Position numbers and translations under genes: made by a program. Source: Desulfarculia bacterium (GTDB lineage Bacteria > Desulfobacterota > Desulfarculia > Adiutricales > JAGVGV01). Taken from it: a DNA stretch of 64,000 bases. A model generated the notes under the pieces. The model was given only the letters and a program-made list of their open reading frames with translations. It searched no databases and was not told where the DNA came from. How positions within the stretch are numbered: the first letter of the stretch is position 1; the number at the start of each line of letters is the position of its first letter. Positions 7,148 to 50,231 of the stretch are shown one piece after another. The stretch is from positions 2,560,249 through 2,624,248 of the forward strand of contig OY759590.1 of assembly GCA_963662445.1 (NCBI GenBank), written 5' to 3'.

Positions 7148-7158
7148 GGGACTAAGTC

Positions 7159-8636: not shown

Positions 8637-8644
8637 ATCAAATC

Positions 8645-10343: not shown

Positions 10344-10357
10344 GGTTAATATACTCT

Positions 10358-11893: not shown

Positions 11894-12149
11894 AAAATTA
11901 CCAATACAAATATGATTCAGAAAATAGAGTAGGTGTGTAAGGTGGTATGGGCAACGCTTAAGCGATTTATTCAGCGGAATTTAAAGAAAGATACCTAGTG
12001 AGGCATAGGGAGGCACGTAGATTCTACGTGCAGGCTGCTCCTCGTTTTTATAAAGGGGCAGGAGTGAGAATCCGCTGAATCTGATGATTATTTTTGTGGG
12101 CGCCCGGAAGTTTATGGAAACGCTATGGGATGTTTTCCTGGATAGACCG

Positions 12150-12480: not shown

Positions 12481-12630
12481 TCTTTGTGGCGCGCAGGCAA
12501 GGGGGCTTTTCAGGTCTGGCCAACTTCTGGAGTTTAGGGCAAAAAGGTCTTAACGTGATAGAATCAGGGAAACAATTCTGTCCCTCAAAACAAGGCAGGT
12601 AGGCCATTGCGCGGAGCAAGGTTAAAAAAA

Positions 12631-13770: not shown

Positions 13771-13874
13771 GAATTCATGACGGGTTCCATAGGTATTCTG
13801 TCTGTTGAATAATCACGGCTGTTGCGGTTCTACTGAAGTGACTGCCCGGATTAGACCGGTTAAGGATAATATTG

Positions 13875-16115: not shown

Positions 16116-17303
16116 ATGGCTGATATATTGATATTGGGCGGAGATGGTTATCTGGGCTGGCCCACGGCCATGTATTTTTCCAGTCAAGGGCATAGCGTGA
16201 CCGTGGCCGATAACTATTTTCGGCGCAACGCCTGCACTGAGCTGGATGTCGGCATGCTCTACCAGGTGCCTACACTTGCCAACCGAGCGAGGCTCTGGTA
16301 CGAGTTGACCGGCCGGGAGATAAAGGTCGTCGTCGGCGATCTGAGCGATGCAGAAGTCATGCGTTCATTCTTCGACGGCAGGGTTAAGTATCAATGGGCT
16401 GTCGACTCAGCTTTCAAAGGCGCACCCGAGGCGGTAGTCCATTATGCCGAGCAGCCATCGGCACCGTACTCGCTTATAGATTACAAATACGCCAATTTCA
16501 CTCTGACCAACAACCTTCTGGTTACCAATAACCTCATGTTCGCGGTGCGTGATTTTTCCCGGGAAACTCACATTATCAAGCTGGGAACCATGGGGGAATA
16601 CGGGACGCCCAATATTGATATTGAAGAAGGCTGGTTAGAGATTGAGCATAAGGGCCGGAAAGGCAGATTTTTGTTTCCCAGGCAGGCAGGTTCGTTGTAC
16701 CATACCACAAAGGTCATGGATACCGACCTGCTGTGGTTTGGTGTGCGCATGTGGGACCTTAGGGTCACAGACCTCATGCAGGGCCCTGTCTACGGCCTGG
16801 AGACAGAAGAATCGGCCGCCGATCCTCGGTTGCGGACCATATTCAATTATGACGAAGTGTTCGGCACAGTGCTGAACAGGTTCATCACCCAGGCTGTGGT
16901 GGGATATCCTTTGACGGTCTATGGCCAAGGCGGCCAGACCAGGGGATACCTGAACATCAAGGACACATTGCAGTGTGTGGGCAAGTCTCTTGAGACGCCG
17001 GCCGGAAAAGGCGAGCTGCGGATATTCAATCAGATCATGGAAACATTCAGTGTTTCCGAGCTGGCTGAATTGACGAAGAAGGTCGGTGATGCTCTTGGGT
17101 TTGATGTGGAGATCAAAAGCATCGATAACCCGCGGAAGGAAGCGGAAGAGCATTATTACAATCCTACCTATCAGGGGCTGGTGGATATTGGGGTTGAGCC
17201 ACATTACCTGACCGAAGAGGTCATGAAAGGCATGTTCCGGATCGTGGCCGAACACCGGGACAGTATCAGGCGCGATGTGATTTTCAGAGGGATTAAGTGG
17301 TGA
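16116..17303 (+). CDS. sqdB: UDP-sulfoquinovose synthase
   Basis: Long identical strings to plant SQD1 / bacterial SqdB as recalled: ILGGDGY.GWPTA, KLGTMGEYGTPNIDIEEG, GGQTRGYL.I.DT.QCV, FNQ..E.FSV.ELA, NPR.EAEEHYYN, G.EPHYL. Confidence 0.9.
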   Translation: MADILILGGDGYLGWPTAMYFSSQGHSVTVADNYFRRNACTELDVGMLYQVPTLANRARLWYELTGREIKVVVGDLSDAEVMRSFFDGRVKYQWAVDSAFKGAPEAVVHYAEQPSAPYSLIDYKYANFTLTNNLLVTNNLMFAVRDFSRETHIIKLGTMGEYGTPNIDIEEGWLEIEHKGRKGRFLFPRQAGSLYHTTKVMDTDLLWFGVRMWDLRVTDLMQGPVYGLETEESAADPRLRTIFNYDEVFGTVLNRFITQAVVGYPLTVYGQGGQTRGYLNIKDTLQCVGKSLETPAGKGELRIFNQIMETFSVSELAELTKKVGDALGFDVEIKSIDNPRKEAEEHYYNPTYQGLVDIGVEPHYLTEEVMKGMFRIVAEHRDSIRRDVIFRGIKW

Positions 17304-17308
17304 AGGTA

Positions 17309-18497: not shown

Positions 18498-21400
18498 ATG
18501 AAAATACTTTTTATAAGTCCTCGGCCTTTCGGTCTGATGGGGACTCCCGGAACATATCTTCTTGTGGAAGCGTATGCGCAAAATGCTCATGTCTGTGTCA
18601 TTGCCAATAAGGACCATGACGATTCGTTCAGAATCGTGCATCCTCCATCCTCCCGTGTTGAATTGCATGAGATATCTTTTAGCAATGCTGAATATCTTCT
18701 CGACATACTGAGAATTGTCCAAATATTTAGACCTGATATCGTAACAATCGGGAGTCACCCTGGATGGACATTCATTCTTGATTACCTAAAAGCGCATTAT
18801 TCAGCAGCGAAGTATGTCTATGACATAAAATCTCCTCTTCTGGCTCCGGGCAATTCGAGGAGGAGCCTTGAAACTGCAAAAAGAGGTAGAATATCTGCGA
18901 AGAATGTTGATCTGGTCCTGACCCGTTGCCTCGAAGATGTGCAGACATGGATTCCCGAATGCTCAAAGCCTGTCCTGGTCTACCCTTTGGGAGTAAAACT
19001 GACGAATTATGAGCCTATAAAAATAGGTGAGGGTTTCTCCAGCTGCACGAGATTTGTTTATGTGGGAGCCATTGCTCCACTGAGGATGCTTGAAAAACTT
19101 CTTGAATTTATAGCCGCATTGCCTTGGAAGATCAGAAAGGTCGTCAGGTTTGATTTTTATGGATCGGGCCCTGCTGAATCAAGTTTTGTAAATACAATAG
19201 ATGAACTTCGCCTTAATAAGATTGTATCGTATAATGGTTGTGCCGATACAGTCCAACTGCCCAAATTACTGACAAATTATGAAGCTGGATTAGCTTGGGT
19301 GCCCCACGAACTATATGATACGGCTCCATCTTTGAAGATAGTTGAGTATACATCTGCAGGGCTATTACCGATTGCTATGGATACTACCGCGCACAAGCGT
19401 TTTGCGGATAATGGCTTCCATGTATCATTCTTCTCTGATACAGCCAATTCCTTTGCCTGTGCAATTGGAAAAGCCGTTATCGAAGGTTACAATGCAGAAA
19501 AAAGATCCGAAAATATGGATAGAATTAGGAAGTATGATTGGTCTAACATTGTAGAAAGCTATATATTTCCGGCTTTTGTTGATCTATTAGACACGAATGC
19601 GATGATGACAAGCCAAAGGGAAAATGAGCCGGTTGACAAGAGTCACCATGCTTTCACGTATAGCGATCAGAGTATTGTTGTTCGCAATAATTGGCAACAT
19701 GATTTGCACAATATGGAAATTGAGAAAAAGAGAATACTGTTTATTGGTCCCCCTGGATTTGCTGAAAAGATATGGGATACTAGGGCAAGATATATCATTC
19801 CAGATTTGTTTGATAGTATTCCTTCGAATTGGGATGTATATTTTCTTACTGGAGAAGTGCCGGAATATGCGTGGGACGCTATTAATTCCCTCATTGAAAA
19901 ATATAAAATTAGACACATTGAAATAGGGCCAAAACCTAAAAGAATTTCATTCGATGAATATTGGGATTCAGAAATTGTCAAATACGCTAAATTTGTTCGG
20001 CCGGACTTCATCTCGAACATATTTGGGGCATTAAGGGCAGGTAAAGCCATTGCCCTTGCAGCAGAGGACGTAGGGGCAAGAGCAATATTGCGTGTCCCTG
20101 GGGATGAAATATTGTCGAGGGTTAACATGGGCGTATATCAAGAGAAGTCCAATAAATACATTGTGGATATGGAGCGGCAGCAGATTGCTTATGATCTGTC
20201 CGACGCCATCATTGCAATGTCGCCGTGGGAAAGAGAGCGCATATGCGGATTTCTCGAAGAAGATAAACATGCCAAAGTTCATATCTGTATGAGAGGTGTT
20301 GATACAGATATTTTCAAACCAAATTACGCGAAGGAAAACAATACTAAACAAATAAAACGTTTTCTTTATCTTGGAAGAATGTCTAAGGAAAAAGGCTACG
20401 ATATAGTTGAGGAAGCAGCCAAGATATGTTGGGAGAAGGAAAAAGATATTGAATTTACATTTGCTGGTAACTTTGGAACGAGTAAAATAGCTAACAGAAA
20501 CTATATCGGTTGGGTGGAGAGCTCCTCACTACCAGATATCTTCAGAGGTCATGATGCGCTAATACTGGTGTCACGAACGGAAGGATTTCCTCAAGTCGTG
20601 GCGGAAGCTATGGCTAGTGGATTACCCTGTATATTGTCCAGGTCGCTATTTTCCAAGATATTTAGAAACAAGGAAGATGCTTTACTGACAGAGATGAATC
20701 CGCAGGCGGCGTCAGATGCTGTATTGGAGCTGTATAACGACGTTCAATTATCTCATATGCTGGCAAAAAGGAGCAGGTTGATAGCGACGACATATATGAA
20801 AAAGGAAATATGGAAAGAAGTATACCGCGATATAATATTGGGTAATAATCAATATTCAACGAGAAAAAGACAATCTTACTATATGACCAAGTGGCATGAT
20901 TTTGGAAATGAATCCGGAATTGAAGCTGCATTTAATTGTGAAAGAATAACTAATTGCCACGCAGATGTTGCGAGAGTTACCAATAGACAAAGAGTGAAAA
21001 GTGTCACCACGAGTATGCGAAGGCAAAATACTCTCTACTCTGTTGCTGAAAAAAAATTAAAGATGTTGATGATTAGTCCGAGACCATTCGGCCTAATGGG
21101 GACTCCAGGCACCTATGAGTTAGCTGAACGTCTATCTGACTATATGGATGTATGTGTAGTTTCAAATTCAAATAAAGTAAAGAATATAGAAATTGTTCAT
21201 TCGGCCTCAAATAACATCAGATTGTACGGAATTGATTTTGCGGATAAGACAATAGTTTTTGCTTTGATGAAGGAGATTCTTTCTCAATATAGGCCAGATA
21301 TTGTATATCTTCTCTGTGGCGCTGATTGGTTTTCGTTTTTGGATTATTGTAAAAAAGAAAGGCCTAGTAGTAAGTATGTATTGGACATCAAATCTCCATA

Positions 21401-24035
21401 TTTCCATTCCCAAAAGATAGAACGTCATGAGTCGCTTAAGAAAAATGGTGATTCAGAGTCAAACAAACTTGACTTGATATTGAGTTATTCCGAAGAGATA
21501 ATTGACTCATGGTTTAGTAAAAGGGATGTTAATAGCATAGTATATCGTCTTGGAATTGAGAAGGCAAACTATAGTCCTAAAAAAATAAATACAGCGACAA
21601 TTCCTTGCATGAAAATTGTATATATTGGGTCTATACACCCAAAAAGGAAAATGCATCGCCTTTTGAATTATATTGAGTCATTACCTTTACAGATAAGGGA
21701 AAAGGTGCGTTTTAGCTTTTTCGGAAGCGGCCCGGGAGTTGATGATCTCTGTAAAGACATTATTAAGAAAGGGCTAAATAGAAATGTCTCATATGAAGGA
21801 TGCCTGAATGGATTAGATCTGGCAAATAGATTGAGTGAATATGATGCAGGATTGGCATGGGTTCCACATGAAATATTCAACTATTCTCCATCTTTAAAGA
21901 TATTGGAATATATGGCAGCAGGTCTTTGTCCCATAGCGATGGATACAGTTGCCCATAAACGATTGGCGGAGCAAGGTTTTGAAATTAAATTTTTTACGGA
22001 TTCAGCAGAATCATTCGCCGCTACTATCGGTGAATTAGTTAAGGGTGGTTTTTTGAATGTTCAAAGGGAAAACAATCTGAAATTGATTGATAGGCATGAT
22101 TGGGACAATATTGTGAAAGAAGAAATATTGCCAGTATTGATGGGTGTGATGGGAAAGACGGAAAAGAATATAAGAAAAAAAGACGATAAGACTAAACAAA
22201 GTGATGTCAATATGCGAACAGAAGATAACTGGGGTTTTGCAAATAATATGAACAGAAAACATGAAATCGATATAGAAAAAACATATTTTTGGGACTTGTC
22301 ATATAATATTGAGAAACACAAAAGGATAACAACCGGAAAAACACGCATAGCCGGTATAGTTGGAGAGAGACTTTTTAGCAGCATAAGATACGATGCGGAA
22401 TTACTGGTATTAACACCAAATAATTGGGAACAGATACTTAAATATGGAAAACCACGCTTTATATTGATGGAATCGACATGGTCTACGGTAACTGGTCATT
22501 GGTATATGGCACAGAGTATAAAGAATAGTGAACAAGAAGAACTATTAGAAATATTGGATCAGGCAAAGAAGCGTGGAATACCCAGCGTCTATTGGATAAC
22601 ATCTGATCACTCAATGCACGATCATTTTAGCGATTTTGCTAAGCATTTTGATTTTGTCTATTGCGCAGACATGAAAGAAATAGGTTTATTTAAAAGGGAT
22701 GGTATAAACGCGGCGATATTACTTCCTGCGGTTCAACCGGTTATTTTTAATCCCATACATAATTTCAATCAAAATAAAATAAGGAAATCAGGAATCCTTT
22801 ATGATGGCTGGGTCGATCTTTTTAGGTACCCGGAACTTGGTAATATATTGAGTAAAGTTAAAAAAGATAATCTAAATATATATCAATCTGACTTGATGAT
22901 GTACAGAACACAAGTTAAGCACACAGCTAACAATTTGGCTCAATCAATTAGAGGTACAATAACAAAAAGTGCTTTGCCATATCTTTTAAGAGACGCAGAG
23001 ATGTATATATCATTTGAGAAAACAGCCTTATCAAAGACACAAAAATTATGGTCCTTATTGGAGGCTGCTGCGTCTAGACTACCCTTAGCTCATTTAGGCA
23101 AAATAGAAGTTGATGATCCTCGCAATAAACTTGTAAAACAATTTGATAATGAATTTGAATTTATTCAATTTGTAAATCAGGAGAGTGAGTTCAGTTTTGA
23201 AATAGAAAAAAATAGGCATCTGGCCTGGAGAGAAACATTTTACAAGCATATCATGGCCAAACGTATCCAGCAGATATGTAATGACATAGGTATTGAAGAT
23301 GAATGGCAGGAATTTCCTAAGGCTACTTTAGTTACCGGAACAATGAGACGAACATTATTGCCTAAGTGTTTTGAACAGTATGAGAATCAAGTATACCCTA
23401 ATAAAGAGTTGATTCTTATCTATAATGGCAATGTTAGTGATGTCGAAGAATATAAGAAACTCTATTCTGATAGAGATGATATCATAATTGAGGCTATTTC
23501 AACTGATTTTTCCGTTGGAACAGTGTTAAATTATGGAATAATCAGGGCAAGGGGAGACTATTTTTTTCGTATTGATGACGATGACATATATGGTCCCAAT
23601 TATATTTTGGATTCATTGTTATATCTAAGGGGAACCGACGCTGATATATTTGGTAAAAGAGCCTCATATTTTAGCTTTGAAGATGATCCTGCAGTGTATC
23701 TAAGAAATAAGTTGTTACCAATAATACAAAAATTTCCATCAAAAAGACTTCATGAGAGTCATGATACGCTTATAAGTGGCTGTAGTTTTGGAGGAAAAAC
23801 TGAGTATTTAAAAAGACATAGATATCCTGACGGTATACATGCTTCAGCTGATACTGCAATCATTGATTCACTTAAGAGGCAAAAACAAGATGTTGAATGC
23901 CTAATTATGGATAGCTTAAACTTGGTTGTAAAAAGAAATAGCCGGCTTAATAGTCATACATGGAGAATGGACAATAATAAAATAAAGGACGAGGCAATAA
24001 AGGCAACTGAAAATTGCTCTGATGTCATATTTTAA
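18498..24035 (+). CDS. 1845-aa five-module glycosyltransferase: GT4-like A1, canonical GT4, GT4-like A2, CgeB/DUF3880-like, GT2
   Basis: Single uninterrupted ORF. A1 spans aa 1-365 and A2 spans aa 856-1215; they share MISPRPFGLMGTPGTY, RPDIV, KYV.DIKSP, GSGP, AGLAWVPHE, SPSLKI.EY..AGL.PIAMDT.AHKR. The GT4 module (aa 411-781) has LGRMSKEKGYD..SRTEGFPQVVAEAMASGLP. The C-terminal GT2 has YPNKELILIYNG..FFRIDDDDIYGPNY. Confidence 0.85.
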   Translation: MKILFISPRPFGLMGTPGTYLLVEAYAQNAHVCVIANKDHDDSFRIVHPPSSRVELHEISFSNAEYLLDILRIVQIFRPDIVTIGSHPGWTFILDYLKAHYSAAKYVYDIKSPLLAPGNSRRSLETAKRGRISAKNVDLVLTRCLEDVQTWIPECSKPVLVYPLGVKLTNYEPIKIGEGFSSCTRFVYVGAIAPLRMLEKLLEFIAALPWKIRKVVRFDFYGSGPAESSFVNTIDELRLNKIVSYNGCADTVQLPKLLTNYEAGLAWVPHELYDTAPSLKIVEYTSAGLLPIAMDTTAHKRFADNGFHVSFFSDTANSFACAIGKAVIEGYNAEKRSENMDRIRKYDWSNIVESYIFPAFVDLLDTNAMMTSQRENEPVDKSHHAFTYSDQSIVVRNNWQHDLHNMEIEKKRILFIGPPGFAEKIWDTRARYIIPDLFDSIPSNWDVYFLTGEVPEYAWDAINSLIEKYKIRHIEIGPKPKRISFDEYWDSEIVKYAKFVRPDFISNIFGALRAGKAIALAAEDVGARAILRVPGDEILSRVNMGVYQEKSNKYIVDMERQQIAYDLSDAIIAMSPWERERICGFLEEDKHAKVHICMRGVDTDIFKPNYAKENNTKQIKRFLYLGRMSKEKGYDIVEEAAKICWEKEKDIEFTFAGNFGTSKIANRNYIGWVESSSLPDIFRGHDALILVSRTEGFPQVVAEAMASGLPCILSRSLFSKIFRNKEDALLTEMNPQAASDAVLELYNDVQLSHMLAKRSRLIATTYMKKEIWKEVYRDIILGNNQYSTRKRQSYYMTKWHDFGNESGIEAAFNCERITNCHADVARVTNRQRVKSVTTSMRRQNTLYSVAEKKLKMLMISPRPFGLMGTPGTYELAERLSDYMDVCVVSNSNKVKNIEIVHSASNNIRLYGIDFADKTIVFALMKEILSQYRPDIVYLLCGADWFSFLDYCKKERPSSKYVLDIKSPYFHSQKIERHESLKKNGDSESNKLDLILSYSEEIIDSWFSKRDVNSIVYRLGIEKANYSPKKINTATIPCMKIVYIGSIHPKRKMHRLLNYIESLPLQIREKVRFSFFGSGPGVDDLCKDIIKKGLNRNVSYEGCLNGLDLANRLSEYDAGLAWVPHEIFNYSPSLKILEYMAAGLCPIAMDTVAHKRLAEQGFEIKFFTDSAESFAATIGELVKGGFLNVQRENNLKLIDRHDWDNIVKEEILPVLMGVMGKTEKNIRKKDDKTKQSDVNMRTEDNWGFANNMNRKHEIDIEKTYFWDLSYNIEKHKRITTGKTRIAGIVGERLFSSIRYDAELLVLTPNNWEQILKYGKPRFILMESTWSTVTGHWYMAQSIKNSEQEELLEILDQAKKRGIPSVYWITSDHSMHDHFSDFAKHFDFVYCADMKEIGLFKRDGINAAILLPAVQPVIFNPIHNFNQNKIRKSGILYDGWVDLFRYPELGNILSKVKKDNLNIYQSDLMMYRTQVKHTANNLAQSIRGTITKSALPYLLRDAEMYISFEKTALSKTQKLWSLLEAAASRLPLAHLGKIEVDDPRNKLVKQFDNEFEFIQFVNQESEFSFEIEKNRHLAWRETFYKHIMAKRIQQICNDIGIEDEWQEFPKATLVTGTMRRTLLPKCFEQYENQVYPNKELILIYNGNVSDVEEYKKLYSDRDDIIIEAISTDFSVGTVLNYGIIRARGDYFFRIDDDDIYGPNYILDSLLYLRGTDADIFGKRASYFSFEDDPAVYLRNKLLPIIQKFPSKRLHESHDTLISGCSFGGKTEYLKRHRYPDGIHASADTAIIDSLKRQKQDVECLIMDSLNLVVKRNSRLNSHTWRMDNNKIKDEAIKATENCSDVIF

Positions 24036-24099
24036 TGAAAGATAGACAAAGACAAGGCCTTTAGCATAGCAAATTCAATAATGCAAATTGGTGAGGAGT

Positions 24100-25116
24100 A
24101 TGTTAGAATATTGTAATATATTGATTACAGGTGGCTGCGGATTTATTGGGACATCAATAGTAGATAGAATTAATAGACTGTACAGTGGAAAGAAGGTATT
24201 AATTCTAGACAATTTTGTTACTGGAACTCCAAAAGATCTGGCTGAGGTGGCAAGTTTTAAAACGGCTTCAAGCGGTGATTGGCCAACGAAAGAAGGAATA
24301 ACACTGGTCAAAGGAGATATACGTGATAAGGATTGTGTTATGCAGTGTTGTAAGGGGGTCGACTGTATTATACATCTAGCGGCGAATACTGGAGTTGGCC
24401 CATCAGTTCAAAATCCATCGTTGGACATGGAATGCAATGTTGTCGGAACATTTAATTTATTGGAGGCGGCTAGATTAAATAATGTAAAAAAGTTCATATT
24501 TGCTTCTTCGGGAGCACCTGCCGGGGAAGTTGAACCACCTATACACGAAGAGTTACCTCCACATCCTGTATCACCCTATGGAGCGAGTAAATTGGCTGGA
24601 GAAGGATACTGTTCAGCTTACTACAGAACTTTTGGGTTGCGAACAATTTGTTTAAGATTCGGCAACGTATATGGTCCCAGGTCAAAGAAGAAGTCAAGCG
24701 TGGTGGCAAAATTCATCAGGCAGGCCTTGGCTGGAGAAGAGTGCGTTATATTTGGCGATGGAACACAAACCAGGGACTTTATTTATATTGATGATTTAGT
24801 AGGTGCTGTCTTGCTGGCAATGCACAAGGATGTGGGGGGGGAGACTTTTCAAATTGCCACAGGCCTGGAATGTACGGTAAGTGAGATTGCAGAATTAATT
24901 CAAAAAAAGATGCATAAAAACGGAATAGATATGAAAATTGTTTATGATAATCCGCGAATGGGAGACGTAAGACGTAACTTTGCAGATACAACAAAAGCCA
25001 AAATTGGTTTAGGCTGGACTGCTGCTGTGCCACTGGAAGAGGGATTAGAGAAAACACTATCATACTTTTTAGATATTGCTGTTAGTGACCAGAACAAGGA
25101 GATGACCGATGACTGA
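24100..25116 (+). CDS. NAD-dependent sugar-nucleotide epimerase/dehydratase (extended SDR)
   Basis: ILITGGCGFIGTSIV and the YGASKLAGE catalytic YxxxK. Substrate is not assignable. The start is ambiguous (24088 TTG or 24100 ATG). Confidence 0.85.
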   Translation: MLEYCNILITGGCGFIGTSIVDRINRLYSGKKVLILDNFVTGTPKDLAEVASFKTASSGDWPTKEGITLVKGDIRDKDCVMQCCKGVDCIIHLAANTGVGPSVQNPSLDMECNVVGTFNLLEAARLNNVKKFIFASSGAPAGEVEPPIHEELPPHPVSPYGASKLAGEGYCSAYYRTFGLRTICLRFGNVYGPRSKKKSSVVAKFIRQALAGEECVIFGDGTQTRDFIYIDDLVGAVLLAMHKDVGGETFQIATGLECTVSEIAELIQKKMHKNGIDMKIVYDNPRMGDVRRNFADTTKAKIGLGWTAAVPLEEGLEKTLSYFLDIAVSDQNKEMTDD

Positions 25117-26410
25117 TAACCAGACTAAAGATGTAGTTGTGGTATTAAGCGCCGGCAGGTCTGGTACGTCTTTACTTATGAATGTCATGAACAGGTTGGG
25201 GATGGAGCTTTCCGAGGAGATGATTCCTGGAAGGTACGGAAATCCGGATGGTTATTTTGAAGATTCTGAAATAGTTCAGATACACCAGAATTTAATTAAA
25301 GATATTTCCGCAAAGGCTAATCTGCCACTCCCAGATAACTGGCTATTGAATGAAAAGGTAAAAAGTGCTGTACCCAAACTTAAGACGATATTGAAAGATC
25401 GTCTTCAAAAATGTAACGGAACATGGGGGTTTAAAGATCCTCGTACTTCGGTGTTGTTGCCTTTATGGCTAAGAGTTTTCAATTCCGCAGTAGTAAATCC
25501 GATTTTTGTCCTGGCCATAAGACATCCAGCGGCAATGGTAGTTTCAATGCGCCGCATCGTAGACAATGACGATACGGTAACAGAACTACAATGGCTTCAC
25601 CGCACATGTGAAGCTCTGTATAACACTTCCGGCGATTGCTACATCGTTCATTATGAAGACTGGTTTAGAAGAGGGGAAGAAATAGCTGGTGAGCTACTTA
25701 ATTACACCGGTCTGGAAAATAGTTTTGGGGAAAAAGACATTAGCGATGCGCTGCGGGGACTGATAAAAGACAATTTGAACCGTTCAGTCTATGAAGATTA
25801 TGACATACAGAACAAGTATGTAGCTATGTTATATGAGAGCCTACAAAATTGTCGGGGCAAGGATTTTGATCGTTCGAAGTTGATGGAGACCGTGAAAGAA
25901 TGTCGGAATGCTATTCACGGTTTTAAGGGGTGGTACCAATTGGCTCTGGAGGCCGGGAGCGATAAGAACCAGGAAAACGTTAATAAGATAAAGAAACTAG
26001 AAAATGAGCTAAAGGACAAAGAAGAGAAGCAATCCGCCAGAATAGAAGAACTTGAGATTGATGTTGCTAAAAGTGTATCAAATTGCAATAGTTATTTACA
26101 TAAGATAAAGGATCTGGAGGATGAAGTCTGCCATTTGAGAATAAGAGTTACAGCCCTGGCTTTGGCCTCTACTAACAACGCCTCTGAAAGTGGTAGACAG
26201 TCCAAAGGTATTGTAAGCGGCTTAGACTATGAATTGAACAGGTGTCGTTGCGAGTTGCGGGCTATGAGATCTTCAGTCACCTATAGAACAGGCTATTTCG
26301 TTGTAAAAGCGTTCTCTAAGCCGGGGAAAAACACAATTTTGCTTCCTTACCGGCTGATCCGGATTTTTCTAAAACACCTGGCCACACGAAAACGGAAAGT
26401 AATAACTTGA
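25109..26410 (+). CDS. sulfotransferase-family protein with C-terminal coiled coil and basic amphipathic tail
   Basis: 5'-PSB-like VVLSAGRSGTSLLMNVM, 3'-PB-like GFKDPRTS and AIRHPAAMVVSM. Residues about 285-350 show heptad-like K/E/L-rich sequence (NKIKKLENELKDKEEKQSARIEELEIDVAK..IKDLEDEVCHLRIRV). The last ~40 aa are basic and hydrophobic. Confidence 0.72.
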   Translation: MTDNQTKDVVVVLSAGRSGTSLLMNVMNRLGMELSEEMIPGRYGNPDGYFEDSEIVQIHQNLIKDISAKANLPLPDNWLLNEKVKSAVPKLKTILKDRLQKCNGTWGFKDPRTSVLLPLWLRVFNSAVVNPIFVLAIRHPAAMVVSMRRIVDNDDTVTELQWLHRTCEALYNTSGDCYIVHYEDWFRRGEEIAGELLNYTGLENSFGEKDISDALRGLIKDNLNRSVYEDYDIQNKYVAMLYESLQNCRGKDFDRSKLMETVKECRNAIHGFKGWYQLALEAGSDKNQENVNKIKKLENELKDKEEKQSARIEELEIDVAKSVSNCNSYLHKIKDLEDEVCHLRIRVTALALASTNNASESGRQSKGIVSGLDYELNRCRCELRAMRSSVTYRTGYFVVKAFSKPGKNTILLPYRLIRIFLKHLATRKRKVIT

Positions 26411-26468: not shown

Positions 26469-27251
26469 ATGCTACAACTCACACGCAATTTGCGCGATTA
26501 CCGCAACGCTTTGGTGATTCAGTTCTGGGTCAACATCAGAACAACTGTTGCTGCGACAAGACTCGGTGTCCTATGGTGGATTCTTGATCCGCTCATGCTC
26601 ATGATGATTTATTATTTTGTTATAAAGATTGTTTTTAACCGCGGCGGGCCGGGTTACCATTTTTATGCACTTTGTGGAATTGTGACATGGCAATCTTTTT
26701 CGCGATCTCTGACTCAGTGTACAAACGCACTGATTGGCAATTCTGCGTTAATTAAACAAGCTGTTCTGCCGATAGATCTTTATGTTTTGTTGCCCCCTAT
26801 TGTGCAGGCATTTTTTTATTTAATAGGTCTGGCTATAATAGCTATCTGGAACAATAATGTAGTGGGTTGGTATACTCCAACTGTTCTGGTATTGCTGATT
26901 CCGATGGTCCTTCTGCCATATGCTTTGGGGCTTTTTCTTGCAATACTGAGAACTAGATCTCCAGATTTGGGAAAATTTGTTCCTTATATATTAAGATTCG
27001 GGTTCTATTTCAGTCCTGTTTTGTACGGTCCAGAAAGAATTTATGATTTACACATACCGCAGCTATTTAAAACTTTATATTCTTTGAACCCTATGGTTCA
27101 CATCATAACTGCTGTGCGAGAAGTCTTGTTCGAGGGGCGTATGTTTGATTTGCGTCCGATATTATTGGTATCGATTGCCGCTATCTTATTAACACAGGCT
27201 GGACTTGTATTTTTCCGGCGATTTGCACCGTCAATTCCTAAGTATTTGTAA
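26469..27251 (+). CDS. wzm: ABC-2 type polysaccharide export permease
   Basis: 260 aa, six hydrophobic segments, ABC-2 (Wzm/TagG/KpsM-like) layout, immediately upstream of a Wzt-type ATPase. Confidence 0.85.
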   Translation: MLQLTRNLRDYRNALVIQFWVNIRTTVAATRLGVLWWILDPLMLMMIYYFVIKIVFNRGGPGYHFYALCGIVTWQSFSRSLTQCTNALIGNSALIKQAVLPIDLYVLLPPIVQAFFYLIGLAIIAIWNNNVVGWYTPTVLVLLIPMVLLPYALGLFLAILRTRSPDLGKFVPYILRFGFYFSPVLYGPERIYDLHIPQLFKTLYSLNPMVHIITAVREVLFEGRMFDLRPILLVSIAAILLTQAGLVFFRRFAPSIPKYL

Positions 27252-27317: not shown

Positions 27318-29321
27318 ATGAGTTTAATAATCGCCAGCATATTCTCCCGCAAACAGCAAGGTGCGGGGCTTATGGTTTACGATTTGACAAAATCGGAAGC
27401 CGCATATGTCCAGTTGCTCAATTTTGAGTCAATTCCCACGCGGCTTCATCAGCTACGAGGAATAAGCGTTCTGGCGGATCAGCTCTACGCCGTCGTTCCT
27501 GGCGCGTTGTTGATATTTCGTATTCAGACCAAAGAGAATGGTCCGCTTTTTATTCTCGAAAAGACTGTTGTACGGCCGGATTGGGTTTTGGGAAAGGAAG
27601 CCCAGGGCGACCTGCATGCGGTCTATGCTTCAACTAGACGCAATCGTCTTTTTGTGTCTTTCAACAGCCAGGCTGCCGTGGAAATCCTAGACCTGGATGG
27701 GAATTTTCTGGAAAGGCAATATCTTTGGGAAATCGCGCCAGATATATTCCCTTTGCCGACAAAGATTGCGGGGAATAGTTTTCAATTCGGCATAATCAGG
27801 CATATTTTCGAGGCGCCCGACGGGGAAGTCATGCTGACAACAGCCCTGTTGAACGGTACTCTGGAAGGCGGAATTATAAGTTACGATGACGGCCGGATGG
27901 TTCTGGGGCCGACACCGCAGCCTCCTCACGGGGGCTTGTTTTTTCAGAACAGACTTGCTTATTGCGACATACGCCAAGCGGAAGTCCCGGTTTACAAGTG
28001 GTCTTCCGGGATGAGTATTACAGCAAACGAACCAAGCAGTGTTTTCAGACCAGAGATTACCGAAAAGCGCTGGCAGGACAGCGAGCAGGCCGTTAGAGGT
28101 ATGACCTGCATTGACGAACATCTGCTATGCGGCGTTTTCTATCTTGGCAAACCTAAGAAAAAACAGATTCCCCCAAGAATGGTCGAGTTCGACCTGGATG
28201 CGGGCAAACAGATCAGGGAACACTTCCTGCCCTCTTTCAAGGGGCTGGAAGAGCCGATGATCTATGCGCTGTTGCCTGCTTCGCCGGAGATTGAAGCTGC
28301 CGCGGCAATGTATGCGGAGCCGAGATATTTCCGTGGAGATGAGCCGTTTGCACCCGAGTTGCTAAAACAGCCACAAGAAATGCCTGAGCAGTCTCCGGAA
28401 AAAGGTGCTGTTACTCCTGTGGAAGCCCAATCAGGCGTAAAGGAAAACACTAAATCAGAAGAGACAGAATCTGAAATCCAGGCTCCATCTGATTTGCATT
28501 GCGAAGCCCCGCAGTTACCGGTTATTGAAAGAAAGCCAACAGTTGTACTTGATGGAGTGAGCGTGAAGTTTGTCCGCTCGGGAAAGCTGCTGGCGAAATT
28601 CAGTAATCAGCTCCGAAAGAAGAGAATCCATTGGGCGTTGCGCGGCGTCTCCTTGTCAGTCTTCGAAGGAGAGGTTCTGGGTATCATCGGGCGTAATGGA
28701 TCTGGAAAGTCCACTATGTCGATGGTCTGCGCCGGGGTTTACCAACCAGATGAGGGAAAAATCACGGTTCAGGGGCGGGTTCAGCTTCTGGCCTTGGGTG
28801 TTGGTTTTAAAAATGAACTCAGCGGTCGGGAGAATGTCGTCATCAGCGGGAGCTTGATGGGGTTGAGCCGACGTGAGATATTGGCCAAAATGGACGAAGT
28901 TGAAGAATTTGCGGAACTGGGGGATTTTATGGATGAGCCGGTCCGCACTTATTCCAGCGGCATGCGCAGCCGTCTGGGATTCGCTGTGGCCACGGCGGTT
29001 CAGCCGGATATTCTCATTCTGGACGAGATCATGGCGACAGGCGACAGGGCCTTTCAGGACAAGGCCATGAATCGTATGAAGGAGATGCGCAGCCTTGCCA
29101 GAAGCGTGATTATCGTTTCCCATGCGCCGGGCCAGTTGAGAAAGCTGTGCGACAAGGTTCTATGGCTGGAGAAGGGGAGAACCGTCATGCTTGGGGAAAC
29201 CAAGGAGGTTCTCAACGCCTACGACAATTTCTGCCAGAATCCCCAGAAATGGCTCATGAGGCATCAGCAGGAAGTCGATATCCCGCCTGATGCAGGTGAG
29301 GGTTGTTCACAGACGGAGTAA
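27318..29321 (+). CDS. wzt: polysaccharide export ATP-binding protein with ~400-aa N-terminal extra domain
   Basis: The C-terminal NBD spans about aa 407-667: Walker A GRNGSGKST, signature YSSGMRSRLGF, Walker B ILILDE, H-loop VSHA (Wzt/TagH type). Residues 1-340 are a non-NBD, beta-rich domain. Residues 345-405 are a P/E/Q/S-rich linker. Confidence 0.85.
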   Translation: MSLIIASIFSRKQQGAGLMVYDLTKSEAAYVQLLNFESIPTRLHQLRGISVLADQLYAVVPGALLIFRIQTKENGPLFILEKTVVRPDWVLGKEAQGDLHAVYASTRRNRLFVSFNSQAAVEILDLDGNFLERQYLWEIAPDIFPLPTKIAGNSFQFGIIRHIFEAPDGEVMLTTALLNGTLEGGIISYDDGRMVLGPTPQPPHGGLFFQNRLAYCDIRQAEVPVYKWSSGMSITANEPSSVFRPEITEKRWQDSEQAVRGMTCIDEHLLCGVFYLGKPKKKQIPPRMVEFDLDAGKQIREHFLPSFKGLEEPMIYALLPASPEIEAAAAMYAEPRYFRGDEPFAPELLKQPQEMPEQSPEKGAVTPVEAQSGVKENTKSEETESEIQAPSDLHCEAPQLPVIERKPTVVLDGVSVKFVRSGKLLAKFSNQLRKKRIHWALRGVSLSVFEGEVLGIIGRNGSGKSTMSMVCAGVYQPDEGKITVQGRVQLLALGVGFKNELSGRENVVISGSLMGLSRREILAKMDEVEEFAELGDFMDEPVRTYSSGMRSRLGFAVATAVQPDILILDEIMATGDRAFQDKAMNRMKEMRSLARSVIIVSHAPGQLRKLCDKVLWLEKGRTVMLGETKEVLNAYDNFCQNPQKWLMRHQQEVDIPPDAGEGCSQTE

Positions 29322-29329
29322 CATTCAGG

Positions 29330-32266
29330 ATGAATTCTTTTTTGGAGATATATACCGAGGCTATCAAGCTGTTTCATAGAAGGCGCTTCGCCGAAGCTGA
29401 AAAGGCGATTCTGGCGTACAGGGGTGAAGCTGACTATTTTGCTTTGGAACATGTGGATAAACGTTCCGAGAAAAGACCTCTGGCCTCGGTTGTCATAGTT
29501 TCGAGAAAGGGCGAAGAAGGCCTGCTGCACTGTCTCGACTCACTGGAAAGAGAAAGCGAAACAGCATTTGAAACCATTGTGGTTAACAATGGCGAAAATG
29601 ACAGTGTTCTGGATAGATTGCTTTTGAGGGATATCTGCCTTGTGCAGGGTAATGCCGTTTTTACTCCTTCTGAAGGCCGGAACATCGGAGCGGCTTATGC
29701 CAGGTCGGAATTATTGATTTTTCTGGATGATGACGCCTTGGTTGGCCAGGATTTCGTAAAAAACGCCATTGCCGCTTTTAGGGCATATCCCTTTCTGGGC
29801 ATACGCGGCCGCGTCCTTCCCAAAACCAGCGAAGGCAACAATGCGGTTGCCGGCCACTATGACATCGGGGAACTCCCTATCCCCGCCGTGTTGGACACCG
29901 AAGGCAATATGGCCGTGCCGAAGGATGTTTATGAAGCCGTGGGCGGAATGAATCCTTTGATGTTCGGTTCGGAGGGGCTTGAACTTTCCCATCGGCTGTT
30001 GAAGGAATTTCCGGGCAGAGACATCTACTATTGGCCCTCCATGACCATACTTCATGATTTTGCCCAGGGCGGGCGGCTGGAAGCAAAAATGAAACGGTAC
30101 ATCTTGGCTACGGAATACTTCAATGCCATGATGCCCGACGCCTTGAAGATGAGAAAGCAGTACCTGGCCTGGATTCTTTCGAGACCGGGAACAGATATGA
30201 AGACTGACCGCATTATCGGGGAATCTGCGGGCTCCGAAGACATGGAAAAGGCGGAACTGCTGTTTCGGATTTCCCGCCTGGAAAAAGAGTTGGAGATTAC
30301 CACCAATTCATTTGCCTTGCGTCTGGGCCGTTTGTTGGGCCGGGCCTACTCTTCGCCATGGCGGGAGGGGCCGCTTCTGCCCCTGAAAATGTTTCGTCTC
30401 GCCAGGGAATGGCGGAGTGGAGGGAAGAACCTGTTCCGCGTGAACAATTCTCCCCGAACGGCCATTATGTCCATTGTGGGATCGGAGCTTCGCAATGAAA
30501 AAAATTATGCCACCCCGGGCAAGACGGAACATGTCTATGGTATTTTCCCAGCCTTCCGTCCATTGCGAAAAGGAAAACTGTCTTCTTCGCTCCGCATAGC
30601 CTGTATACTTGGCGAACATACATTCCGTTGTCTTGAACCTGACGCACACCTCTTTCCTCTTTCGGAAAACGGCTGGAAAGAAGAGATCGAGCATGCGGCA
30701 CCTCAGATGCTGCTGGTCGAATCTCTGTGGCAGGCCTCCGACGGCGGCTGGAAAAACGTGCTGGCTACAACGGATGATTGGCCGACCTCGTTAAAGGATA
30801 TTCTGGCTTACTGCAACGAGCGATCTATTCCGGCCGTTTTCTGGAATACCGAGGATGTTGCCCATTATCCATTTTTCAGGAATGCGGCCAAATACTTTGA
30901 GCATATATTCGCCATGGATGCCCGGGTGGTGAGTCTGTACAAGCAGGAGACAAACAAACCTGTTCATCACCTGCCGCCGGCGGTGCAACCGGTCTATCAC
31001 AATCCTGTTCGCTCGGCCGAAAACGAGCCTGAAGTGAAGGGGTTCACGTATCTGTTTGATGGATGGGCTGATCTGATTGAGAAGCCGGAAGATTTTTCTT
31101 GTCTGGATCAGCTCTGTGAACGCGGTCTGCACATTGTGGAATCAAGGTACCGGTTCAGAGCGAATAAACTGGACGAGAACCCTGCATATAAAAAATCCAT
31201 CATGGGGTGCCTTGACTACGAACAGTTGTTAACCGCCTGGAGATATTACCAGGTGGCTGTCATGTCGCCGACATCGCTGTCCACGCCTCTGGTCAGATTC
31301 AAACGCGCCATCGAGGCCGTGGCCTGCGGGACTCCCGTGCTGCACTTCGGCAAGACGGACTGGGAATGGCCCGCCCATGGAATTGTTCAGACCGAGAACG
31401 CCGCTGATTTCAAAGGCAAAGCGCGAGATCTGATCGAAGATAAGGCTCTCAATGGCCGTCTGTCTCATCTGGGCCGCCGGGAATTGTACTTGTCCCATAC
31501 CTATGCTCACCGTCTGAAGCATATATCTTCCGTGTTGGGCCTGCAAAACGACTGGGTTGAATATCCGAAGGCCTGCGTGATAACCCCCACCAAGAGGCCG
31601 GACCTTATCCCCGGCTGCATAGAAAAGTTCGAAGCTCAGGTTTATCCCAACAAGGAATTGATTATCATCGTCAACACCACGGATGCCGATTCGGACTCAA
31701 TCGGAAAAACCCTGGCCGGCCGCGACAATATCAAGTTTTTTCAGCTCCATCAGGAGAAAAATATAGGGGCCTGTCTGAACTACGGCATTTCACAGGCCAC
31801 CGGCGCCTACTGGTTCAAGATGGATGATGATGATTTTTATGGCAGGAACTATCTGCTGGATACGATGATTGCCCTAAGAGGCTTTGATGATTGCGTTTTC
31901 GGAAAGCCGCCCGGGTTTGTCTACTTTGAGGAGAATGACAAGATATTCAACAGGGGCGAAGGATTTGACGGAAAACACATCCAGGGCGACAAGCATGCGC
32001 CGTACATAAGCGGGGCGACACTTGGCGGAAAAATAGGGCTCGATATTGATTTTTCCGAGGAGCATCGTGCCTGCGTGGACAGCTTCTTTCTGGAGACCAG
32101 CAGCAGAAGGCGGGGCCTGCCCACCTATGCTTCGGATATTTTCAATTTCGTGGCCTACCGTTCCCGGAGTGCCGCCGACCATACCTGGAAAGTCGATCCC
32201 AGGGCAATAAAGAGACGTTCCGTGCCTTTTGCGGATGGACTTGATTTTACAAACATTATGATCTGA
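29330..32266 (+). CDS. three-module glycosyltransferase: GT2, CgeB/DUF3880-like, GT2
   Basis: The N-terminal GT2 has ASVVIVSRKG..ETIVVNNGEND..FLDDDA. The middle and C-terminal modules are colinear with aa 1282-1845 of the 18498-24035 product (RIA.I.GE, P..L.ES.W, IP.V.W.T.D, LP.AVQPV..NP; YPNKELI.I.N, LNYGI, DDDD.YG.NY). The ATG at 29330 was chosen. Confidence 0.8.
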   Translation: MNSFLEIYTEAIKLFHRRRFAEAEKAILAYRGEADYFALEHVDKRSEKRPLASVVIVSRKGEEGLLHCLDSLERESETAFETIVVNNGENDSVLDRLLLRDICLVQGNAVFTPSEGRNIGAAYARSELLIFLDDDALVGQDFVKNAIAAFRAYPFLGIRGRVLPKTSEGNNAVAGHYDIGELPIPAVLDTEGNMAVPKDVYEAVGGMNPLMFGSEGLELSHRLLKEFPGRDIYYWPSMTILHDFAQGGRLEAKMKRYILATEYFNAMMPDALKMRKQYLAWILSRPGTDMKTDRIIGESAGSEDMEKAELLFRISRLEKELEITTNSFALRLGRLLGRAYSSPWREGPLLPLKMFRLAREWRSGGKNLFRVNNSPRTAIMSIVGSELRNEKNYATPGKTEHVYGIFPAFRPLRKGKLSSSLRIACILGEHTFRCLEPDAHLFPLSENGWKEEIEHAAPQMLLVESLWQASDGGWKNVLATTDDWPTSLKDILAYCNERSIPAVFWNTEDVAHYPFFRNAAKYFEHIFAMDARVVSLYKQETNKPVHHLPPAVQPVYHNPVRSAENEPEVKGFTYLFDGWADLIEKPEDFSCLDQLCERGLHIVESRYRFRANKLDENPAYKKSIMGCLDYEQLLTAWRYYQVAVMSPTSLSTPLVRFKRAIEAVACGTPVLHFGKTDWEWPAHGIVQTENAADFKGKARDLIEDKALNGRLSHLGRRELYLSHTYAHRLKHISSVLGLQNDWVEYPKACVITPTKRPDLIPGCIEKFEAQVYPNKELIIIVNTTDADSDSIGKTLAGRDNIKFFQLHQEKNIGACLNYGISQATGAYWFKMDDDDFYGRNYLLDTMIALRGFDDCVFGKPPGFVYFEENDKIFNRGEGFDGKHIQGDKHAPYISGATLGGKIGLDIDFSEEHRACVDSFFLETSSRRRGLPTYASDIFNFVAYRSRSAADHTWKVDPRAIKRRSVPFADGLDFTNIMI

Positions 32267-50203: not shown

Positions 50204-50231
50204 AATCTGTTGTGAGGAGAGTCTTATACCA

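Follow-up and report, generated by a model that had tools for sequence, protein, structure and literature searches.

Control of polysaccharide chain length by capping is known from a few enterobacterial prototypes, in which the caps are methyl, phosphomethyl or Kdo groups. The locus described here lies in a 64,000-nucleotide stretch of a Desulfarculia bacterium genome (assembly GCA_963662445.1, contig OY759590.1), hereafter the window, and carries a gene for a sulfotransferase with a coiled coil directly before wzm. It raises the question of whether sulfate can also serve as a chain-terminating, length-setting cap. The layout of head, stalk and anchor found in this protein is otherwise known only from chain-capping, length-setting enzymes. 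We put at about even the chances that it is a stalked sulfotransferase that caps chain ends, sets their length and is docked at the assembly and export machinery. The features on which this assessment rests are collected in Table 1.

Table 1. Features of the sulfotransferase and polysaccharide export locus (positions in the window; aa, residues of the encoded protein)
Feature	Position	Strand	Basis
UDP-sulfoquinovose synthase (SQD1)-like gene	16116..17303	+	match to Arabidopsis SQD1 1qrr
1845-aa multi-glycosyltransferase: three GT4/GT1-type regions and C-terminal GT2 region	18498..24035	+	Pfam
SDR sugar-nucleotide epimerase/dehydratase	24088..25116	+	Pfam Epimerase, 212 bits
Sulfotransferase with coiled-coil stalk and docking module, 433 aa	25109..26410	+	ORF, homologues, AF2 model
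Catalytic sulfotransferase domain, aa 1-271	25109..25921	+	alpha/beta domain by AF2, Foldseek
5'-phosphosulfate-binding loop GRSGTS, aa 16-21	25154..25171	+	conservation in 120 homologues
3'-phosphate-binding motif RHPAAMVVS, aa 138-146	25520..25546	+	conservation in 120 homologues
Long helix, coiled-coil stalk, aa 273-358	25925..26182	+	AF2, heptad register
Basic amphipathic docking module, aa 376-429, core SSVTYRTGYFVVKAFSKPGKNTILLPYRLIRIFL	26234..26395	+	profile A4, 77.8 bits
wzm, ABC-2 permease	26469..27251	+	Pfam ABC2_membrane
Wzt N-terminal beta-propeller domain, aa 1-345	27318..28352	+	AF2, Foldseek
Wzt low-complexity linker, ~aa 346-415	28353..28562	+	alignment A2, columns ~350-470
Wzt nucleotide-binding domain	28563..29321	+	Pfam ABC_tran, aa 441-571
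987-aa multi-module glycosyltransferase: N-terminal GT2, docking module, Glyco_trans_1_2, GT2	29303..32266	+	Pfam
Second docking-module copy in the 987-aa glycosyltransferase, aa ~323-371	30269..30415	+	A4 hmmsearch, E 1.2e-5

The sulfotransferase gene and its catalytic head

The gene has an AAGGAG ribosome-binding site 8 nt upstream and is translationally coupled to the SDR gene before it, which is 61-67% identical to genes beside other members of the sulfotransferase family. An overlap with the upstream stop codon and a 58-nt gap to wzm had been given in a preliminary description of this DNA; both are correct, and the overlap measures 8 nt. The same description placed PAPS-type motifs in the N-terminal ~270 aa. 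These were located as GRSGTS (residues 16-21), KDPR (109-112) and RHPAAMVVS (138-146), and all are conserved. A total of 333 homologues of the protein were found, and 120 of these were aligned. In that alignment, K109, R138, S146, E51 and D52 are invariant, and G16, R17, G19 and S21 are conserved in at least 90% of the sequences. Further invariant residues are R133, R161, R260, H100, H162, H302, W89, W137 and W228. GRSGTS without a Walker A lysine, in combination with R138...S146, is a pattern that we take to be typical of sulfotransferases of the TPST/Stf0/CurM type.

The AlphaFold2 (AF2) model of the 433-aa protein has a mean pLDDT of 92.8. When the head was compared with the PDB by Foldseek, the best seven matches were all sulfotransferases (E 1.8e-6 to 7e-4). 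The top matches include 4gox, 4gbm, TPST2 (3ap3) and Stf0 (1tex), with E from 1.8e-6 to 1e-3, at a sequence identity of just 13-18%. The Pfam family PF13469 (Sulfotransfer_3) scores 26.3 bits against a gathering cut-off of 27, and a PF13469 assignment is precomputed for the majority of the homologues. The predicted fold of the head is that of a sulfotransferase, and the motifs for PAPS binding are present. PAPS would be the donor of the predicted enzyme, and a lipid-linked glycan presumably its acceptor. No PAPS-synthesis genes were seen among the window ORFs of at least 200 aa between 2231 and 61911, a scan that excluded those inside a larger ORF on the opposite strand.

It is very unlikely that the head is instead P-loop kinase-like and adds phosphate, as the kinase of WbdD does, or that its acceptor is something other than a glycan, for example a lipid carrier or a sulfolipid. 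P-loop kinases do rank right behind the sulfotransferases in the fold search, but all seven matches at E <=0.001 are sulfotransferases. Similarly, the Pfam score falls slightly under its cut-off, but the glycine-rich loop lacks the Walker A lysine and is paired with the invariant R138...S146. The sulfotransferase gene of Okeania, which follows SQD1-like and GT4 genes, is possibly sulfolipid-related, whereas in the window the gene is surrounded by wzm/wzt and glycosyltransferases for polysaccharide. Fold ranking and motifs together make the P-loop kinase reading unlikely.

The coiled-coil stalk

Beyond the head, the AF2 model contains one uninterrupted helix over residues 273-358 (~86 residues). 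This helix covers residues 285-350 (nt 25961-26158), for which a charged, heptad-like coiled coil had been predicted, and the heptad statistics agree with that prediction. The heptad register is unbroken from about V291 to L352, 35% of the residues in the heptad segment are charged, and the mean heptad score was matched by just 4 of 300 shuffles of the same segment. In addition, the tail of the family profile contains weak matches to myosin, GCN4, keratin and tropomyosin.

The stalk is a family feature. In the 96 sulfotransferases that bear the C-terminal module described below, the spacer between head and module ranges from 26 to 361 aa (median 94) and contains just 3.5% Pro+Gly. The shuffle test was applied to the 95 members with a long enough spacer; in 74 of them, the observed heptad score was reached by no more than 3 of 60 shuffles. 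The stalks differ greatly in length, in contrast to the conserved C-terminal module. The stalk presumably oligomerises. Close homologues from Okeania, Allochromatium and Rhodoferax have a coiled-coil tail of 65-75 aa but lack the module, and wzm/wzt are absent from the surrounding 10 kb. The coiled coil alone may be the oligomerisation element of the family.

The C-terminal docking module

The C-terminal ~40 aa had been described as basic and amphipathic, which was confirmed. Of the last 45 aa, 11 are K/R and none is D/E, few parts of the protein reach their hydrophobic moment of 0.54-0.55, and no transmembrane segment is present. Most of this region belongs to a conserved docking module of 54 aa, which 65 of the 120 close homologues retain. 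When the C-terminal 65 aa served as query in a word-indexed search for homologues, there were no matches; an exhaustive search with profile A4 found the module in 297 proteins among 1.84 billion representatives. None was found among PDB chains. When all six-frame ORFs of the window were searched with A4 by hmmsearch, the sulfotransferase and the copy in the 987-aa glycosyltransferase were recovered, and nothing else.

In other proteins (P0141, P0214, P0238, P0244, P0199 and P0234), the module joins an N-terminal methyltransferase or pyruvyltransferase head to glycosyltransferase modules at the C-terminus. A glucuronyl C5-epimerase (P0228) bears it as well, as do plain glycosyltransferases. Its presence on the last two indicates that the module marks membership of an assembly complex, not termination. 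The module presumably docks at the membrane and at the polymerase.

These observations bear on internal sulfation by a tethered enzyme, which is the main rival to a terminal cap. A sulfotransferase recruited by its module would sulfate internal residues during synthesis, for example one per repeat unit, and the coiled coil would serve for oligomerisation or reach and not for measuring length. We regard this as a substantial possibility, although we lean against it. Characterised relatives of the glucuronyl C5-epimerase modify internal residues of the finished chain, and the module is thus shared with a polymer-level internal modifier as well as with ordinary glycosyltransferases. However, the C5-epimerase domain of P0228 ends at aa 271 and the module begins at aa 296, which leaves almost no spacer, whereas a rigid stalk of 26-361 aa would place the sulfotransferase active site far from a membrane-proximal polymerase, an awkward arrangement for modification during polymerisation. 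The short coiled-coil sulfotransferases that exist without wzm/wzt favour internal modification. So does precedent, since the sulfated bacterial polysaccharides described so far carry, to our knowledge, their sulfate on the repeat units. Against it, the head in fusion proteins occupies the exact position of the proven terminators of WbbB and Klebsiella O7 ORF6.

Family distribution and the ABC exporter

The best GTDB relatives of the sulfotransferase, at <=48% identity, come from Desulfonatronum, Desulfosarcina, Desulfocapsa, Arhodomonas and Okeania, and members of the family occur in sulfate reducers, halophiles, purple sulfur bacteria and cyanobacteria. In 80 GTDB loci, a Wzt-like nucleotide-binding domain lies within 10 kb of five of the eight module-bearing sulfotransferases, versus eight of the 72 without the module (Fisher p = 0.002). 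Three module-bearing loci (L009, L020 and L021) nonetheless have no ABC transporter within 10 kb. Both the layout of head, stalk and C-terminus and the linkage with wzm/wzt are genuine features that have been conserved in a large family.

The wzm gene is matched by the NCBIfam Wzm/RfbD and KpsM models below their cut-offs and is 56-62% identical to the wzm genes that adjoin sulfotransferase homologues. The TagH and Wzt models match Wzt at aa 424-652 with 195-215 bits. The C-terminal beta-sandwich carbohydrate-binding module is absent from this Wzt; the protein ends ~15 aa past the nucleotide-binding domain. At its N-terminus, it carries a domain that AF2 models as an all-beta propeller (pLDDT 88.6, pTM 0.90) and for which Foldseek found generic propellers only. 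Just 11 homologues of this propeller were found in 5.8 billion proteins, every one fused to an ABC nucleotide-binding domain, and the linker between the two domains differs in length among homologues (~65-120 aa).

A sulfotransferase-family gene is present in the cluster at seven of the eight readable propeller loci (the window, L001, L005, L010, L083, L084 and L085). At the eighth, L082, the contig ends just before wzm in a truncated ORF that was not compared with the sulfotransferase. A scan of metagenomes for the propeller gave a single locus, a duplicate of L001. In what is a very small sample, linker length showed no obvious relation to stalk length. The propeller is a candidate reader of the glycan end or cap, and would presumably bind the cap. 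Some module-bearing clusters (L004 and L086) encode a short Wzt with no accessory domain, which speaks for internal sulfation.

Predicted sulfoquinovose synthesis, glycosyltransferases and fusions

An SQD1-like gene that co-occurs with the sulfotransferase was absent from the preliminary description. Its product matches Arabidopsis SQD1 (1qrr) over the full length (389 bits, residues 3-395) and the NCBIfam equivalog at 406 bits, below the cut-off of 575. As a full-length match it resembles the SQD1/SqdB/Agl3 enzymes, but the gene lies inside a polysaccharide and ABC-exporter cluster and not beside a sulfolipid synthase. In the loci of close sulfotransferase homologues, its counterparts share 75-81% identity with it, and nearly all of these loci combine it with a GT2 and the sulfotransferase, regardless of export route. 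The exported polysaccharide probably contains sulfoquinovose. The constancy of the three genes whatever the export route points to a core structural modification and counts in favour of internal sulfation.

The modules of the 1845-aa protein are homologous to glycosyltransferases of related clusters, and this protein is the candidate polymerase. The N-terminal GT2 of the 987-aa protein is kept in loci with the sulfotransferase and SQD1. In P0240, which is located in a wzm/wzt/SQD1 cluster, the sulfotransferase, stalk and module are fused to a homologue of aa 315-987 of this glycosyltransferase. Both P0240 and P0258 have the order head, stalk, glycosyltransferase in one polypeptide.

The same genes suggest another reading, in which chains are in fact capped by a terminal sulfoquinovose. 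The N-terminal GT2 of the 987-aa protein would add this residue, and the sulfotransferase would decorate it or its neighbour. SQD1, GT2 and sulfotransferase would then be a portable capping cassette. The SQD1-like gene, a GT2 like aa 1-303 (37-51% identity) and the sulfotransferase are indeed kept together while the other glycosyltransferases differ. Also, the GT2 lies N-terminal to the module, in the position of the modifying heads of other fusions, but no coiled coil separates it from the module, and the triad also occurs in loci without an ABC exporter. We consider this reading unlikely.

Comparison with known systems

The stand-alone chain terminator and molecular ruler WbdD is known from E. 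coli O9a and K. pneumoniae O3 and O5 (PMC3482155, PMC11231755). Like WbdD, the protein described here has its modifying enzyme at the N-terminus, followed by an extended coiled coil and a basic, putatively membrane-associating C-terminus, which in WbdD is thought to contact the polymerase. It is likewise a polypeptide separate from the polymerase and encoded in a wzm/wzt cluster. In contrast to the kinase and methyltransferase head of WbdD, the head here has a sulfotransferase fold, the C-terminal module belongs to a conserved family of its own with a further copy in a partner glycosyltransferase, and the Wzt encoded here is without a C-terminal carbohydrate-binding module. A phmmer search of all PDB chains, which presumably include WbdD fragments, revealed no similarity to WbdD or WbbB at E <=1 and returned a lone coiled-coil match.

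In WbbB and the Klebsiella O7 terminator, the modifying head is followed by glycosyltransferase modules (PMC11231755). The order of terminator, coiled coil and polymerase in WbbB (K. pneumoniae O12) and O7 ORF6 is that of P0240 and P0258, and the module-bearing fusions with methyltransferase and pyruvyltransferase heads follow the same domain order. The window differs in that the sulfotransferase is encoded apart from the glycosyltransferase modules, and in that the cap would be sulfate where it is beta-Kdo or methyl phosphate in those systems. The WbdD/WbbB-like arrangement that was originally proposed is partly supported. Its layout and wzm/wzt linkage are upheld, but the lack of sequence homology to either protein and of the canonical carbohydrate-binding module on Wzt limits the support. 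Beyond that description, we favour such an arrangement because the stalk varies while the module is conserved, because methyltransferase and pyruvyltransferase fusions share the module, and because sulfotransferase-glycosyltransferase fusions occur.

The Sulfotransfer_3-type enzymes TPST2, CurM/OLS domains and mycobacterial Stf0 have the fold and the 5'-PSB and 3'-PB motifs in common with the head, and Stf0 also sulfates a sugar. We know of none among them that has a docking module, is mounted on a coiled-coil stalk or is linked to an ABC exporter of glycans. As in the Wzt proteins with a carbohydrate-binding module (E. coli O9a/O8, K. pneumoniae O12), an extra cytoplasmic domain is joined to the nucleotide-binding domain and co-occurs with a coiled-coil modifying enzyme. 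Here, however, the extra domain is N-terminal, is a beta-propeller and not a beta-sandwich, is attached by a disordered linker and is not universal among related clusters.

In an Aeromonas salmonicida cluster, a 216-aa ORF with a sulfotransferase domain adjoins wzt; no coiled coil has been described for it, and sulfate is not known from the O-antigen. The full-text literature yielded no paper joining a sulfotransferase with WbdD or a coiled-coil O-antigen terminator, although such a prediction may be contained in Mann, Kimber and Whitfield (2019; Glycobiology 29:822).

Proposed mechanism and significance

In the stalked-terminator reading, a PAPS-dependent carbohydrate sulfotransferase head would be held at the far end of a coiled-coil stalk of ~9-13 nm. 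The foot of the stalk, a basic amphipathic helix-loop-helix module, would dock on the cytoplasmic side of the membrane, close to the Wzm/Wzt exporter and to the glycosyltransferases, and the lipid-linked polysaccharide would be made by these enzymes. Chains would be sulfated at the growing non-reducing end only once they are long enough to reach the head. This sulfate is predicted to be terminal and chain-terminating; if it halts elongation, chain length would follow from the length of the stalk. Once capped, the chain would leave via Wzm/Wzt, its cap being read by the tethered N-terminal propeller. The gene probably defines a new, sulfate-based version of cap-and-length control.

A more inclusive proposal treats the SQD1-like synthase, GT2 and stalked sulfotransferase as one cassette, which would give a sulfoquinovose-containing polysaccharide with a ruler-set terminal sulfate cap read by the propeller. 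Taken as a whole this is rather doubtful. If true, chain termination would have a third known chemistry, cap readers would gain a new class, and a bacterial polysaccharide with sulfoquinovose would be described for the first time.

With a sulfate-adding head on this scaffold of stalk and anchor, the capping mechanism would be carried to a new chemistry. The 54-aa docking module, common to many modifying enzymes and glycosyltransferases, could explain how such complexes are assembled, and the rare N-terminal propeller of Wzt may be a new kind of substrate reader. The environmental sulfoquinovose cycle is at present ascribed mainly to sulfolipids, and the predicted sulfoquinovose polysaccharide would bear on this cycle and on that of organosulfur.

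Gene setting

The sulfotransferase gene is a genuine ORF with AAGGAG ahead of its start codon, and its overlap with the epimerase stop and its distance to wzm are as first described (see table).

Coordinates of the sulfotransferase gene and of other features in the window
Feature	Position	Strand	Remarks
Second sugar-nucleotide and modification gene set (upstream block)	2231-13770		RmlA-like, 4,6-dehydratase, WbqC, GT2, methyltransferase, hexapeptide acetyltransferase, DegT aminotransferase
Polytopic membrane ORF in upstream block	8985-10343		9 TM-like segments
Polytopic membrane ORF in upstream block	10316-11893		8 TM-like segments
YfhO-like membrane protein	13872-15998		after upstream block
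SQD1-like gene	16116-17303
236-aa ORF	17297-18007		between SQD1-like gene and 1845-aa glycosyltransferase
1845-aa multi-glycosyltransferase	18498-24035
SDR epimerase/dehydratase gene	24088-25116		directly upstream of sulfotransferase gene; its stop overlapped by 8 nt
Sulfotransferase/stalk/module gene	25109-26410	+	433 aa; ATG start; AAGGAG 8 nt upstream
wzm permease gene	26469-27251		58-nt gap after sulfotransferase gene
wzt	27318-29321		after wzm
Wzt propeller (~345 aa) and low-complexity linker (~70 aa)	27318-28562		ahead of nucleotide-binding domain
987-aa glycosyltransferase	29303-32266
Second module copy	30269-30415		aa ~323-371 of 987-aa glycosyltransferase; E 1.2e-5
Two MttB-family methyltransferase genes flanking a corrinoid-binding protein gene	50124-55328		downstream of hut genes

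The 1845-aa protein contains an internal duplication (aa 1-360 resembles aa 853-1217), with a GT4 region between the copies, both of which match single 360-370-aa genes in the homologue loci L005 and L067. The C-terminal part of the 1845-aa protein shares homology with aa 416-981 of the 987-aa one. Neither polytopic ORF matches a Pfam family or has a counterpart in related loci. Pfam and NCBIfam searches with the 236-aa ORF gave no match, and its sole weak relative is in L039. The MttB/corrinoid genes are unrelated to the glycan cluster.

Sulfotransferase head

The motifs that had suggested PAPS binding were all found: GRSGTS (residues 16-21), KDPR (109-112) and RHPAAMVVS (138-146). A sulfotransferase profile search matched Pfam Sulfotransfer_3 to residues 10-203, yet at 26.3 bits, just under the cut-off of 27; the same assignment is present on most of the 333 homologues. 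When 120 homologues were aligned, E51, D52, K109, R138 and S146 proved invariant, and conservation of G16, R17, G19 and S21 was 90% or more. By comparison with TPST, Stf0 and CurM-type enzymes, we take these positions to be the 5'-phosphosulfate loop and the 3'-phosphate R...S motif. The AlphaFold2 model from this alignment is confident (mean pLDDT 92.8), and the first seven PDB structures that it matches (E 1.8e-6 to 7e-4) are without exception sulfotransferases: the sulfotransferase domains of OLS and CurM, TPST2 and the trehalose sulfotransferase Stf0. P-loop kinases rank next in the match list; the Walker A lysine is absent from the GRSGTS loop. A kinase-like activity or a non-glycan acceptor is very improbable, and the head is very probably a PAPS-dependent sulfotransferase.

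Coiled-coil stalk

Residues 273-358 were modelled by AlphaFold2 as one unbroken helix, followed by a low-confidence break at 359-367 and three short helices up to the C-terminus. A single heptad register extends over about V291-L352, and the mean heptad score of this segment was reached by just 4 of 300 shuffles, which bears out the predicted coiled coil; the nucleotide range assigned to residues 285-350 was also correct. The tail of the family profile gives weak matches to chains of myosin, GCN4, keratin and tropomyosin. At 1.5 Å per residue the stalk is 9-13 nm long, and it presumably oligomerises.

Among 96 sulfotransferases bearing the C-terminal module described below, the spacer between catalytic domain and module ranges from 26 to 361 aa (median 94), and Pro and Gly make up just 3.5% of it. 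A shuffle test was possible for the 95 members of sufficient length, and in 74 of them no more than 3 of 60 shuffles reached the observed heptad score. A conserved head and a conserved foot joined by a stalk of variable length is the pattern that a ruler family should display. Okeania, Allochromatium and Rhodoferax have close short forms of the protein that retain a 65-75-aa coiled-coil tail without the module and without nearby wzm/wzt, so the coiled coil alone is no proof of a ruler. These exporterless short forms also favour the main rival explanation, a complex-tethered sulfotransferase acting on internal residues, which we consider possible though somewhat doubtful.

Probable C-terminal docking module

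The C-terminus is basic and amphipathic, as proposed: the last 45 residues include 11 K/R and no acidic residue, with a high hydrophobic moment. Analysis of the C-terminal region found no transmembrane segment in the 433-aa protein. A module at residues 376-429, with the rough consensus L+xS(Y/T)SFRLGQxxVNAxxKPGKNTxLxP(F/Y)(R/Y)LxKL, recurs in 65 of the 120 homologues closest to the protein. Its 54-column profile (A4), run against 1.84 billion representative proteins, found 297. A further 60 module proteins with 250 aa or more were compared with the sulfotransferase-domain profile, and 35 did not match it. Among these, according to Pfam, the module follows a methyltransferase and coiled coil and precedes GT4 or Glyco_trans_1_2+GT2 in P0141, P0214, P0238 and P0244; it lies between a polysaccharide pyruvyltransferase and glycosyltransferases in P0199 and P0234, is directly followed by glycosyltransferases in P0201, P0211, P0236 and P0254, and ends the stand-alone methyltransferases P0185 and P0251.

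P0240 (1069 aa) is a direct fusion of sulfotransferase, module and glycosyltransferase. Its sulfotransferase part is 28% identical to that of the window over residues 2-456, its glycosyltransferase part resembles aa 315-987 of the 987-aa protein (33% identical, 326 bits), and its cluster contains wzm, wzt, an SQD1-like gene and SDR genes. In the window, the second module copy is located between the N-terminal GT2 and the C-terminal Glyco_trans_1_2+GT2 region of the 987-aa protein; no further match was found among all six-frame ORFs. A second module-bearing ORF also accompanies the sulfotransferase in loci L004, L005 and L010, and in L004 and L010 it is a homologue of the 987-aa glycosyltransferase. 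Since it is found on modifying enzymes, glycosyltransferases, fusions and the 987-aa protein, the module looks like a common docking element that gathers modifying enzymes and glycosyltransferases at the membrane. The module-bearing fusions have the same order of head, stalk and glycosyltransferase modules as WbbB and Klebsiella O7 ORF6, which are proven terminator-polymerases (PMC11231755).

The module is not restricted to terminators; a glucuronyl C5-epimerase (P0228), an alpha/beta-hydrolase (P0198) and a GT2 (P0233) likewise end in it. Judging by its presence on P0199, P0234, P0228 and P0198, it may be a tag that recruits polymer-modifying enzymes in general, and the epimerase is a further point for modification of internal residues. 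The module after pyruvyltransferase heads fused to glycosyltransferases possibly indicates pyruvate caps.

Two tandem module copies with further helical sequence between them occur in some sulfotransferase homologues: L001 (203-1963), P0132, P0136, P0137, P0147 and P0180. Other sulfotransferase/coiled-coil members (P0049, P0070, P0081, P0088, P0096, P0106 and L065 606-2828) terminate in other motifs, such as W(R/G)KxKxxPxxFFxDSxxxxLRPLxxLFK or NSTSLRLTRPLQRL, which may be alternative anchors. We take the FFxDS-type motif to resemble N-terminal motifs of some capsule polymerases.

Linkage to the exporter

Linkage was assessed in the 80 best GTDB loci as a Wzt/TagH-like nucleotide-binding domain within 10 kb. 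Such a domain accompanied 5 of the 8 sulfotransferases with the module versus 8 of the 72 without it (Fisher p = 0.002). Remoter homologues beside wzm/wzt in L042, L057, L061 and L065 have long coiled-coil tails and other C-terminal motifs.

The window's Wzt has no C-terminal carbohydrate-binding module. Its residues 1-345 form a beta-propeller (AF2 pLDDT 88.6, pTM 0.90) whose structural matches among PDB entries are generic propellers only, and the linker varies in length between homologues. Just 11 homologues of this N-terminal domain were found in 5.8 billion proteins, each fused to an ABC nucleotide-binding domain. A sulfotransferase-family gene is in the same cluster at seven of eight readable propeller loci (the window, L001, L005, L010, L083, L084 and L085), and the contig of the eighth, L082, stops in a partial 180-aa ORF just before wzm; with complete readable context, the propeller is always clustered with a sulfotransferase. 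Three Arg, three His and three Trp are among the residues that do not vary in this domain. We infer that the propeller is a reasonable candidate for a reader of the modified chain end. Some module-bearing clusters (L004, L086) have a plain Wzt, and clusters whose Wzt is without the accessory domain again favour internal modification.

Sulfoquinovose

The SQD1-like gene, located within the polysaccharide/ABC-exporter cluster, aligns along its whole length with the Arabidopsis UDP-sulfoquinovose synthase SQD1 (389 bits). Homologues 75-81% identical to it were found beside each closest sulfotransferase homologue with a long enough contig, spanning Desulfobacterota, Gamma- and Betaproteobacteria and Cyanobacteria; remoter ones (57-61% identical) occur at a few remoter sulfotransferase loci, including Alphaproteobacteria. 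Besides the window, L002-L007, L009, L010, L083, L084 and L086 contain such a gene. A GT2 like aa 1-303 of the 987-aa protein (37-51% identical) is present at most SQD1/sulfotransferase loci. Because the SQD1-like gene and this GT2 travel with the sulfotransferase, the glycan is predicted from sequence to contain sulfoquinovose, and either this sugar or a residue next to it may be the acceptor of the sulfotransferase. That terminal sulfoquinovose is the real cap and sulfate its decoration is improbable. The main text of a 2026 review of bacterial sulfoquinovose cycling names no polysaccharide, glycoprotein, S-layer or lipopolysaccharide.

Proposed function

The best-supported model, with about an even chance of being correct, is a sulfate-capping terminator. 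The head would be held 9-13 nm away from a membrane-docked foot and would sulfate the non-reducing end of a chain that has grown to sufficient length; sulfation would stop elongation, and the capped chain would then be exported. In its proposed working the protein resembles WbdD, of which it is not a homologue; the chemistry of the head, the module at the foot and the accessory domain of Wzt all differ. A search of PDB chains found none similar to the 433-aa protein, coiled coils aside. No paper in the open literature was found to tie a sulfotransferase to WbdD-type termination. Such heads may have been predicted in the bioinformatic census of Mann, Kimber and Whitfield (2019). The docking module, the Wzt propeller and the link to sulfoquinovose are as interesting as the original idea of a terminator.
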